From a virus (Duplodnaviria > Heunggongvirae > Uroviricota > Caudoviricetes): a stretch of DNA of 8,881 bases. Below are positions 6,001-8,881 of this stretch, one piece after another. Positions within the stretch are counted from its first letter, which is position 1, and every line of letters starts with the position of its first letter. A program made the position numbers. The stretch spans positions 1 through 8,881 of the IMG/VR virus record IMGVR_UViG_2529293214_000003; one strand, written 5' to 3'.

Positions 6001-8881
6001 AACCCAGGTGAAACAAACATCCTGCCATCAGCAAGAATCAAGTACATACGTTCTCTGGATAGATGGAAAATCTATTGGATGCGGAAGGATATGAAATGGC
6101 ATCAGTACAGTACTGAACTTTCGCTGACTGATGCGCTTGAGCTTGTGCGTGCTGACCCGGATTGCTGCTTCTTCGGATGAGTGAAGAGACATTTGGGTGA
6201 TGGATGGTCGCAGAAGTGCGGCTTTTAATGTAATCGAAGAAAAGTAATCCTTGTAAAACTTGATTTGACTGTATTGTCACAAAGAAAGGAATCAACGATC
6301 GTTTCTTGGGTCTTGATTTGTTTTGACGATCAAATTAGTATTGCCTCATCAACTGTATGAGGCTTTTTTATGCAAACCAAAAGCTACACCATCAAAGCAT
6401 TTCAGGACTTCTTACAGATGCTTCCTGAGCTTGGTATCGTCAATGATGCTACAGCCCGCAATCTCCGTGACTCTTCCCTGCGCCTTCTTACTGTTCTTGG
6501 GTCGGATTTCACCGATGCCGATATCCGTGATTATAGCGTTGCCAACTTAGCAAGTTCGTACGCAGACTCAGCAGAAAGCAAACCCTCTGAATCATCTTTG
6601 CAGGCATACAAAAGCCGGATGCAAAGTGCTATTGATAAATTTATCTCCTACCAGAATGGTGAGATTAATGTGTCAGTTGGTGATGTAAATAAAAAAAAGG
6701 AGCGTAAAAAGATGGCACCTAAGAAGAAGGCGGTAGCTGACGTACAGGTTGGTGTAAAAACATTTGAACTGCCGATTCCATTGCGCGGAGATCTTATCGT
6801 CACCATTGGCAACCTGCCTCGCGACCTGACAAAAGATGAAGCCAAGCGTATCAGTCTGATTGTGGAATCTTTTGCGATGATTGATGGCGGAACAAAAGAA
6901 TAAAGCCCCGAGGGAACGGGGCTTTTTGGGTCGGAAATATATCCAGTATTTCCGAAGTGTATGGAGGATTACCTACCGCTACACCCTTGGCAACCGCAAG
7001 CCAAGGATAGCGGTTCTCCCAACAAACTACAACCTGTTCGGGTAAACAGGCTGTATACAAAAACAGGAGAAAAGCTATGGCTCACGATGTTAATCGCGAT
7101 GACTTCATCTACGAACACGACAAGCCGGTTTATGTGCGCAGTTACTGCCGCATACGTTTCGGTGAGCTCGAACATGTTCGTCAGCACTTCCGCTCTTATC
7201 CGAGCTGCTGAAAATAACTAAATCTCAAACCCGGCCACCGAGCCGGGTTTTCTTTGCCTTACGATCCCCCCACCTAAAAAACATAACCAATTGTATTTAT
7301 TGATGTAACTCGCTAAACCATGCAGTTATGATCCCTGCCCCATCACCTTCATCCTCAACATTTACAAAAATAAAATACCTTTGTTATCCATTATTTATAA
7401 CTTATTTACCATGAATTATAAATTAAGTTATTGACCACACCTATAACCTGGGTTATCTTTAAGCCATCAGCAGGACGCTGGTAGCCAAACGGAACAGATT
7501 GGCAGGCTCTTTAACTTCGATGTGGCGCTGACAAAGCGCAAACAGATACCAAACGAGATGGGTTTGGCGGTGATGTGAATTGCAGCAGCAACGACAGCAA
7601 CCAGAAGATCAGCATCTGGCGCATCACCACCAAAGCCATTTCACATGAGGAAAATATCATGACGGTAATCGTGTACGGGAAATCAACATTCGCAGGAAAT
7701 GCCAAAACTCGCCGTCATGAGCGGCGCAGAAAGCTGGCTATCGAGCGTGATTCCATCTGCAACATCATCGATTCGATCTTCGGCACAGACAGTGAGGAAG
7801 CTGTTCAGGAAGCCCCGAGAAAGCGTTTAAGCCTTTCTGAAAAAGCAATATCACTCGGAAGCCTTCGCTGCAAGAAGTCAAAGTCAGAAGAGGTCGAGCG
7901 TAAACAGAACCGTATTTACTACCGCAAGCCACGCAGTGAAATGGGTGTGACTTGTGTTGGTCGCCAGAAAATGAAATTAGGCAGCAAACCACTTATTTGA
8001 GAGGAATTAATATGTCATCAATCCGCTTAACTACGAGAATGAAAGAGGAAATCGCTCGTAACGCTTTAATTAAGTCCGGGGTGTTCACTGAACTTGAAGA
8101 AGTAACAAAGTTAAAGAACCAGCTTGCACTTGACGCCAGAGTTATTGCGTTTGGCGGTAAAAAGAAAACTGAGGAAGTGGATCAGTTATCATCCAAGTTG
8201 GTAGCTATAAGTGAAGAACTTGGAAAGATGGGATGTTCATTTTACTCATACGATGTTAGTTCTACTTCAATTTATCTGACTGTATCTGGCAGAAGGGTTG
8301 GATGGCATTCATATGGGAAAGACGGCAACGGCAAAGATATATTGCTCCCTACTCCGATCAAAGATAAATGCATGTTTGACGCAGAACACGAAATAACAAA
8401 AAGGTTTGATGAAATCTGCGCATTGCAACAAAAACTTGAAGCCAAGAAAAAGGATATCGAATCAAATGTATGGGCTGCTTTGAACTCAGTCACAACAGTT
8501 AAGCGACTTATTGAAGTTTGGCCTGAAAGCAAAGAATTGCTACCAAAAGAAGCAGATAAAGCAAGTACAGCACTTCCTGCTTTACGGGTAGAAGATTTGA
8601 ATAAGATGATTGGACTTCCTTCCGAGGCCGCATAGTCGGCCTTTATTTTTGGCATAAACAACAGAATAAATACTGCACTGTGTATTCATTCCAACGAGTG
8701 AATACACGGAGCAATGTCGCTCGTAACTAAACAGGAGCCGACTTGTTCTGATTATTGGAAATCTTCTTTGCCCTCCAGTGTGAGGGCCTTTTTATATGCA
8801 TACCAATAACGCTTCACTCGAGGCGTTTTTCGTTATGTATAAATAAGGAGCACACCATGCAATATGCCATTGCAGGGTGGC

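Follow-up and report, generated by a model that had tools for sequence, protein, structure and literature searches.

The 8,881-nucleotide (nt) stretch analysed here, referred to as the window (positions 1 to 8,881 of IMG/VR virus record IMGVR_UViG_2529293214_000003), represents the region of immunity and early genes in a lambdoid Stx-type phage, in reversed orientation relative to the lambda map. We find that the gene at 8012-8635 on the plus strand, located immediately behind the antiterminator gene N, is almost certainly genuine and encodes a full-length Nmad5-family protein, with an N-adjacent gene organisation. As to its role we propose, tentatively and at somewhat less than an even chance, that Nmad5 acts without catalysis, as a helical scaffold whose C-terminal module would bind a conserved DNA-metabolism partner when lytic growth begins.

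Identity of the gene and size of its family

The open reading frame (ORF) begins with ATG, ends with TAG and encodes 207 amino acids (aa). Residues 4-203 of the protein align with profile positions 1-206 of 206 in Pfam PF18757 (Nmad5), giving an E-value of 3.1e-71 and a score of 240.2 bits against a gathering cut-off of 27, and the same protein matches PHROG 1965, a family that carries no functional assignment, at E 3e-83. It shares with these families a stand-alone architecture of about 200 aa, the sequence motifs and the predicted fold. It differs from them in its setting: the window copy is not near base-modification enzymes and occupies a PL-proximal lambdoid slot. The gene is already known, in that an identical copy has been deposited and the family name assigned. 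Positions 7400-8881 of the window are 100% identical to Stx1 phage LC727904, and the RefSeq name "Nmad5 family putative nucleotide modification protein" appears in 211 of 5,426 complete E. coli genomes (3.9%). A preliminary description of this DNA had regarded the gene as unrecognised and without any motif, a statement overturned by the full-length Pfam match, the PHROG match and the RefSeq annotation. The case that it had named as refuting its reading, ordinary composition together with clear homology to a known lambdoid early gene of established function, did not arise: composition differs (see below), and the family to which the homology leads is one without established function.

Grouping the family at 50% identity (E<=1e-3) gives no fewer than 2,311 clusters, nearly all of them stand-alone proteins of about 200 aa. 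Among the roughly 330 relatives listed there were no domain fusions, the proteins standing alone at about 190-250 aa. Searches of NCBIfam, PADLOC and PDB sequences with the Nmad5 protein returned no match (0 PADLOC families at E<=1). Scans of Pfam and PHROG at E<=1 returned Nmad5 together with chance-level matches only, and no homology to Ral, SieB or Ea10. Across 61 distinct alleles from related loci, the ratio of nonsynonymous to synonymous substitution rates (dN/dS) was approximately 0.29, and therefore this is a real gene under purifying selection. An antisense ORF of 129 aa at 8272-8661 was taken as a by-product of the sense gene, and an Rfam scan found nothing inside the gene beyond a sub-threshold chance match.

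The name Nmad5, for nucleotide modification associated domain 5, was given for a neighbourhood in hypermodification clusters, according to Iyer et al. 2013 as cited in PMC11846954, and PMC9476957 lists Nmad5 within the M6/SN1 modification cassette. No biochemical activity on nucleotides or DNA is reported for any Nmad5 member in the literature that we found. The "NMAD" defence domain of DefensePredictor was set aside as irrelevant, since it is Nmad2 (PF18753), not Nmad5.

Predicted fold and conserved residues

AlphaFold2 modelling with a 110-sequence alignment gave a mean predicted local distance difference test (pLDDT) score of 89.5, compared with 85.1 in a run with 27 sequences. In the model, three long helices make up the N-terminal part and a small beta-sheet follows at residues 86-122; beyond it come one long helix (127-158) and two short ones (163-176), and there are no membrane-type segments. 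The predicted helical-bundle fold had no solved structural relative and no resemblance to a solved enzyme. A Foldseek search of BFVD returned 11 matches at E<=1e-3, with TM-scores of up to 0.75; the named matches were all Nmad5 and the rest were unnamed phage proteins.

Residue conservation was measured on 145 and on 110 diverse sequences and reaches its maximum in the C-terminal third of the protein. There, a core motif, T162-x-K-[KR]-L-[LI]-E-x-W-P-E-x-x-E-L-[LI]-P178, is followed after a variable linker by the peptide L188-P-A-x-x-x-x-D-L-N-x-x-I-G-L-P203, whose N197 and G201 reach 99% and 97% conservation. The window protein carries all of the conserved positions of this region (W170-P171-E172, E175-L176, P178, L188-P189-A190, L196-N197 and G201-L202-P203) as well as the family-wide N-terminal RLT...I..NA, G48 and G93. 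Gly, Pro, Leu and Trp make up most of the invariant residues, together with a few charged ones, a composition that does not appear to resemble a catalytic set.

The C-terminal peptide is nearly invariant from the phages of enterobacteria to a cyanophage, and the tail that contains it (residues 182-207) was modelled with low confidence even with 110 sequences, though it is highly conserved. Because the peptide hardly varies and the model gives it no fixed place against the rest of the protein, we infer that it is most simply an interaction motif, one that would fold on a partner. A beta-clamp-binding motif is not claimed, as the peptide fits the consensus (QLxLF or QLxLxL) poorly, having no Q and having A, K or R at position 2. 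Half of a helix-turn-helix was likewise rejected for the tail; the protein stops ahead of any recognition helix.

Gene neighbourhoods across the family

Neighbourhoods were sampled at 76 diverse IMG/VR loci. An Enc34-type single-stranded DNA (ssDNA)-binding protein (SSB) lay immediately upstream of Nmad5 at 27 of these 76 loci (27 confirmed by Pfam), 36 had a DUF2800 PD-(D/E)XK nuclease, which was at position -2 in 31 of them, and 31 had a family A polymerase, in 29 of them at +1 or +2. At 12 loci an S24 repressor cluster lay nearby, and at 7 the -1 position was held by a family whose representative matches dATP/dGTP pyrophosphohydrolase. A pattern scan of genome contigs for diverse prophage contexts yielded 4 loci only, the patterns being too specific.

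Nmad5 lies between ThyX and a PD-(D/E)XK nuclease in N4-like phages, ahead of an O-type initiator in Vibrio phage Athena1, behind a helicase-primase in phage eiAU-183 and upstream of recombination genes in lambdoid phages. In MP1412 (M6-like) and cyanophage Pam3 it lies between a gene for a 5-hydroxymethyldeoxyuridine (5-hmdU) DNA kinase or aGPT-Pplase1 and a thymidylate-synthase homologue. The shared context is thus DNA replication, recombination and nucleotide supply, rather than base modification as such.

The window contains no base-modification enzyme of the kind that gave the family its name (thymidylate-synthase-like hydroxymethylase, 5-hmdU DNA kinase or aGPT-Pplase). Positions 4359-8683 are 99.5% identical to phage SH2026Stx1, whose 32-kb early half contains no hydroxymethylase, 5-hmdU kinase, aGPT-Pplase or radical-SAM gene; its sole DNA-modifying gene encodes a Dam-type methyltransferase. 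Such a neighbourhood is a matter of gene context and no criterion of sequence, so that membership of the Nmad5 family stands, but the functional label does not carry over.

Position in the PL operon and map of the window

The features of the window are as follows; the helicase, O, cII, cro and cI rows follow the annotation of the window.

720-3113, minus strand: DnaB-type helicase
3110-4057, minus strand: O
4355-4651, minus strand: cII
4758-5003, minus strand: cro
5064-5801, plus strand: cI (S24 repressor)
5839-6180, plus strand: DUF3024 / phrog_3467 gene, function not known, between cI and PL
6370-6903, plus strand: phrog_2602 gene, function not known, between cI and PL
7431-7459, plus strand: PL-like sigma-70 promoter, TTGACC-17-TATCTT (promoter scan of 6900-8881)
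7659-8000, plus strand: N antiterminator, 113 aa, with the arginine-rich stretch GNAKTRRHERRRKLAIERD (Pfam N_peptide, E 8e-26)
7903-8877, plus strand: mosaic cassette from the end of N to the start of cIII (nucleotide comparison)
8001-8004, plus strand: GAGG ribosome-binding site (read from the sequence)
8012-8635, plus strand: Nmad5-family gene, 207 aa (PF18757, phrog_1965, RefSeq name, dN/dS)
8495-8545, plus strand: core motif, codons 162-178, the most conserved part (family alignments)
8573-8620, plus strand: C-terminal peptide, codons 188-203 (family alignments, AlphaFold2 models)
8624-8653, plus strand: terminator-like hairpin and U-run over the Nmad5 stop codon (terminator scan, folding energy)
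8668-8720, plus strand: very stable hairpin without a U-run (folding energy against shuffles)
8770-8787 and 8808-8827, plus strand: two more terminator-like hairpins in the Nmad5-cIII interval (terminator scan)
8844-8881, plus strand: cIII thermoregulator (Rfam RF01804, E 5.5e-9) and cIII start (ATG 8858), cut by the window end

The Nmad5 ATG follows the N stop codon (7998-8000) after a gap of 11 nt, with GAGG directly behind that stop and 7 nt ahead of the ATG. The PL-like promoter is the sole promoter-like site in the scanned interval, so that none further was found between PL and the Nmad5 gene, and the terminator scan detected no terminator-like site from PL up to 8624. The first hairpin, at 8624-8643, includes the Nmad5 stop codon and has a 7-bp stem with five G-C pairs, followed by TTTATTTTT. 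Its folding energy is -11 kcal/mol (z -1.46 against shuffles), and its reading as terminator-like is convincing from its shape, not from its energy alone. The preliminary description had likewise given this as the first gene after N, with a good ribosome-binding site and a hairpin behind it, and had suggested that it may be expressed early; the arrangement is as described, and early expression agrees with the position of the gene.

As the Nmad5 gene lies directly after N and ahead of the first hairpin, it should be co-transcribed with N when infection or induction begins. Because its PL-proximal position is conserved (see below) and no terminator-like site precedes 8624, the gene probably belongs to the immediate-early PL transcript and would be reached without need for antitermination.

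Behind the gene, in the Nmad5-cIII spacer, the plus-strand hairpin at 8668-8720 is built on an 18-nt inverted repeat and has a folding energy of -23 kcal/mol (z -5.8). No shuffle was equally stable. A U-run and an Rfam match are both lacking, and the hairpin could serve as a site of processing or of protein binding.

Several features elsewhere in the window were also recorded. The helicase, at 797 aa, contains an intein with a LAGLIDADG homing-endonuclease domain, seen as an extra block at approximately 1497-2499. The SH2026Stx1 helicase (458 aa) is otherwise 96-98% identical and is without this block of about 1 kb. Within the O gene, two arrays of 12-nt tandem repeats at 3519-3630 (2.7 and 3.8 copies) coincide with a segment encoding a part of the O protein rich in His and Ala, and with a strong excursion in AT skew; origin iterons are a possible reading of these arrays. 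The lambda rexAB genes lie between cI and PL, and the genes at 5839-6180 and 6370-6903 occupy the corresponding slot here, with a terminator-like hairpin at 7227-7250 behind them. Both are candidates for cargo expressed in the lysogen.

Composition, mosaicism and disruption of the Nmad5 gene

Full calculation of GC content and of GC content at third codon positions (GC3) placed the lowest-GC region of the window at the Nmad5 gene. At 40.2%, the GC content of the gene is below the 46.5% of the remaining window (Fisher p 0.003), and its GC3 is 35.1% compared with 47.5% in the other eight genes pooled (p 7e-4). Just 2.7% of 624-nt segments have a lower GC content, the minimum beginning at 7986. 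The AT-richness that had been noted from subsamples is thereby upheld, including the value for the first 60 nt (38.3%), whereas the figure of about 53% offered for a stretch of the helicase does not represent that gene, which has 49.6% GC overall. Other parts of the window are AT-rich too, namely cI (GC3 38.6%) and the cro-cI intergenic region at 4951-5250 (38% GC). The Nmad5 gene is therefore the compositional extreme of the window and is not unique in it; the contrast is real but moderate.

The gene is part of a mosaic cassette of about 0.95 kb (7903-8877) that comprises the last ~100 nt of N, Nmad5, the terminator region and the start of cIII. This cassette is 96-98% identical in mEp235, PhiR12_1 and a Shimwellia prophage, in which the N genes and immunity regions are unrelated to those of the window or much more divergent. 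It follows Nun in mEp235 and a different N in PhiR12_1. The preliminary description had suggested that the gene may be horizontally acquired, and its interpretation is borne out as far as a mosaic cassette of distinct composition that is highly similar across phages with unrelated N and immunity regions.

The order N-Nmad5-cIII is found in SH2026Stx1 as well, and the same slot is used in mEp235 and PhiR12_1. Prophages of Klebsiella, Providencia and Serratia carry homologues with 42-58% identity, and in these prophages it is the Nmad5 homologue that is called first after the S24 repressor gene, in the same orientation. A promoter resembling PL at 10 of 12 positions precedes Nmad5 in one of the Klebsiella prophages, and no plausible N-like ORF separates the two. 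The PL-proximal position is therefore conserved well past near-identical copies.

In approximately 48 deposited Stx2a phages, an insertion sequence (IS) element of the IS3 family splits Nmad5 at the equivalent of window positions 8115-8118, after about codon 36. The element encodes orfA (108 aa) and orfB (296 aa) and occupies coordinates 1196-2504 in Stx2_716, where a 152-aa C-terminal Nmad5 ORF with a GTG start remains behind it. Because the gene is split in these phages it must be dispensable, and together with its presence in a small fraction of complete E. coli genomes this bears out the earlier view of an accessory gene.

The Nmad5-cIII spacer (8636-8857) is an insertion hot spot. Three transposase genes lie at 6551-8863 of SH2026Stx1, in an insertion whose site corresponds to window 8676-8683 with an 8-bp overlap and which we read as an IS66-type element. 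In Stx2_716 an insert of 400 bp (3188-3587), located at window 8797/8798, contains a 122-aa acidic ORF (phrog_646, function not known).

The Dhillonvirus homologue and Tmn

In the literature that we found, a single experimental study touches the Nmad5 family (Yamashita et al. 2025, PMC11846954), and its link to defence is indirect. It reports that a single K-to-E change in Dhillonvirus nmad5 escapes Tmn defence, that deletion of nmad5 gives no escape, and that the gene could not be cloned and is apparently toxic. The proteins concerned (SM_S22 CDS6 and SM_A8 CDS7) belong to the same Pfam family, and their C-terminal half aligns with residues 103-203 of the window protein at about 30% identity. 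They differ in being longer (254-334 aa as annotated), in their divergent N-terminal half and in their setting among head genes on the opposite strand. Residue K296 of SM_S22, the site of the K296E escape change, aligns with R165 of the window protein, within the conserved TxK[KR]L segment.

The 334-aa CDS6 annotated at 5005-6009 on the minus strand of SM_S22 (PP627283) overlaps a head-scaffold gene by about 200 nt, and residues 1-80 are unmatched in the 254-aa homologue from Oekolampad. The start as annotated therefore probably lies too far upstream, and the published K296 numbering depends on it.

What Nmad5 may do

The role that we tentatively favour can be set out as follows. Nmad5 would be made at the very start of PL transcription, together with N. 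It would be a stand-alone helical-bundle scaffold rather than an enzyme, with its conserved surface in the C-terminal third, and its C-terminal module would bind a partner that is widely conserved and involved in DNA replication, in recombination or in the supply of deoxynucleoside triphosphates (dNTPs). This partner may be a host factor or DNA itself, and through such binding Nmad5 would support or shield the DNA metabolism of the phage at an early stage. It would take no part in base hypermodification in this phage. We prefer a non-enzyme because the helical model is confident, the invariant residues do not look catalytic, domain fusions are absent and the conserved tail is flexible. DNA metabolism is preferred because the neighbours include SSB, nuclease, polymerase, ThyX or thymidylate-synthase and recombination genes.

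Phage T7 offers a working analogy. Its gp1.2, gp5.5 and gp5.9 act by binding a host factor and, like Nmad5 as proposed here, are non-enzymatic stand-alone proteins of the early or middle period encoded among replication genes. They have no homology to Nmad5, and the analogy serves as a lead only.

A bolder form of the proposal, which we hold to be a real if doubtful possibility, is that Nmad5 is misnamed and is a universal non-catalytic early protein whose tethered LPAxxxxDLNxxIGLP peptide binds one highly conserved bacterial target. If so, the target would be a component of the replisome, of ssDNA handling or of the dNTP pool, or else a widespread nuclease or immune sensor, and the placement at the start of PL in lambdoid phages would reflect a need to engage it before replication begins.

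Several observations weigh against a scaffold in DNA metabolism. The sampled neighbourhoods are biased to one clade (the 80 loci closest to P0081) plus selected phages, and Nmad5 lies among head genes on the opposite strand in Dhillonvirus and near tail genes in one Vibrio phage. The low-confidence tail could dock within a homo-oligomer instead of on a partner, and a helical fold may be compatible with catalysis or with binding of a small molecule. Finally, the promoter-proximal position, dispensability, patchiness and low GC content would suit an anti-defence gene equally well.

That last alternative, in which Nmad5 is a dedicated anti-defence protein that is made right after infection and neutralises a host immune system or its signalling molecule, is the strongest competitor, unlikely as we judge it on balance. 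The lambda N-cIII interval carries ral, sieB and ea10, and Nmad5 occupies the same PL-operon slot, which in both cases holds variable, non-essential early accessory cargo. Nmad5 has no sequence relationship to these genes in the Pfam and PHROG scans and, unlike sieB, has no promoter of its own that we could detect. The remaining points in favour of an anti-defence role are the disruption by an IS element in Stx2a phages, the patchy occurrence (3.9% of complete E. coli genomes), the AT-rich mosaic cassette and the Dhillonvirus result, since escape from Tmn by substitution but not by deletion, at a site in the conserved core, resembles a gain of inhibitory function (PMC11846954). However, the wild-type Dhillonvirus protein gives no protection against Tmn in the same study, and no anti-defence family was matched: the PADLOC search, which covers defence systems, was empty, no anti-defence-specific library being searched. 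A family of this size, whose motif hardly varies among phages infecting enterobacteria, Pseudomonas, Vibrio and cyanobacteria, also sits poorly with such a role. The usual embedding between SSB and polymerase genes would be odd for inhibitors of patchy immune systems, though possible for sponges of a universal signal. The preliminary description had guessed at anti-defence or exclusion; with PADLOC empty, Ral and SieB absent from the Pfam and PHROG matches, and a context of replication and nucleotide metabolism, that guess finds no direct support, and the earlier interpretation is overall partly supported.

It is improbable that Nmad5 is a catalytic or accessory component of a nucleotide or DNA-base modification pathway. 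This idea draws on the naming of the family from hypermodification-cluster neighbourhoods (Iyer et al. 2013, as cited in PMC11846954), on the neighbours in MP1412 and Pam3 described above and on the M6/SN1 cassette (PMC9476957). Against it, the early region of the 99.5%-identical phage SH2026Stx1 has none of the partner enzymes, a Dam-type methyltransferase gene being the sole DNA-modifying gene there, most family members are in phages without such clusters (lambdoid and N4-like phages, Dhillonvirus, SSB-PolA modules), and the predicted helical bundle is unlike any solved enzyme.

Expression from the prophage, as a SieB- or Rex-type gene for superinfection exclusion or defence, is suggested by the AT-rich, moron-like character (that of an independently acquired extra gene) and by the location where lambda carries sieB, but is very improbable. 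A gene 11 nt behind N with PL as the only promoter-like site in 6900-8881 should be repressed in the lysogen, no SieB family appeared in the Pfam and PHROG scans and nothing in PADLOC, and the model has no membrane-type segments. Family members are also frequent in phages that are strictly lytic (N4-like, Dhillonvirus, M6-like).

Implications for the family

Nmad5 is a very large phage family that owes its name solely to gene neighbourhood. In lambdoid phages of E. coli that are genetically tractable (mEp235, HK542, PhiR12 and Stx phages), it is a non-essential gene after N, without modification partners. The N-adjacent Nmad5 is thus well suited to deciding between DNA metabolism, host takeover and anti-defence as the role of the family, and could explain how a mutation in a homologue brings about escape from Tmn.

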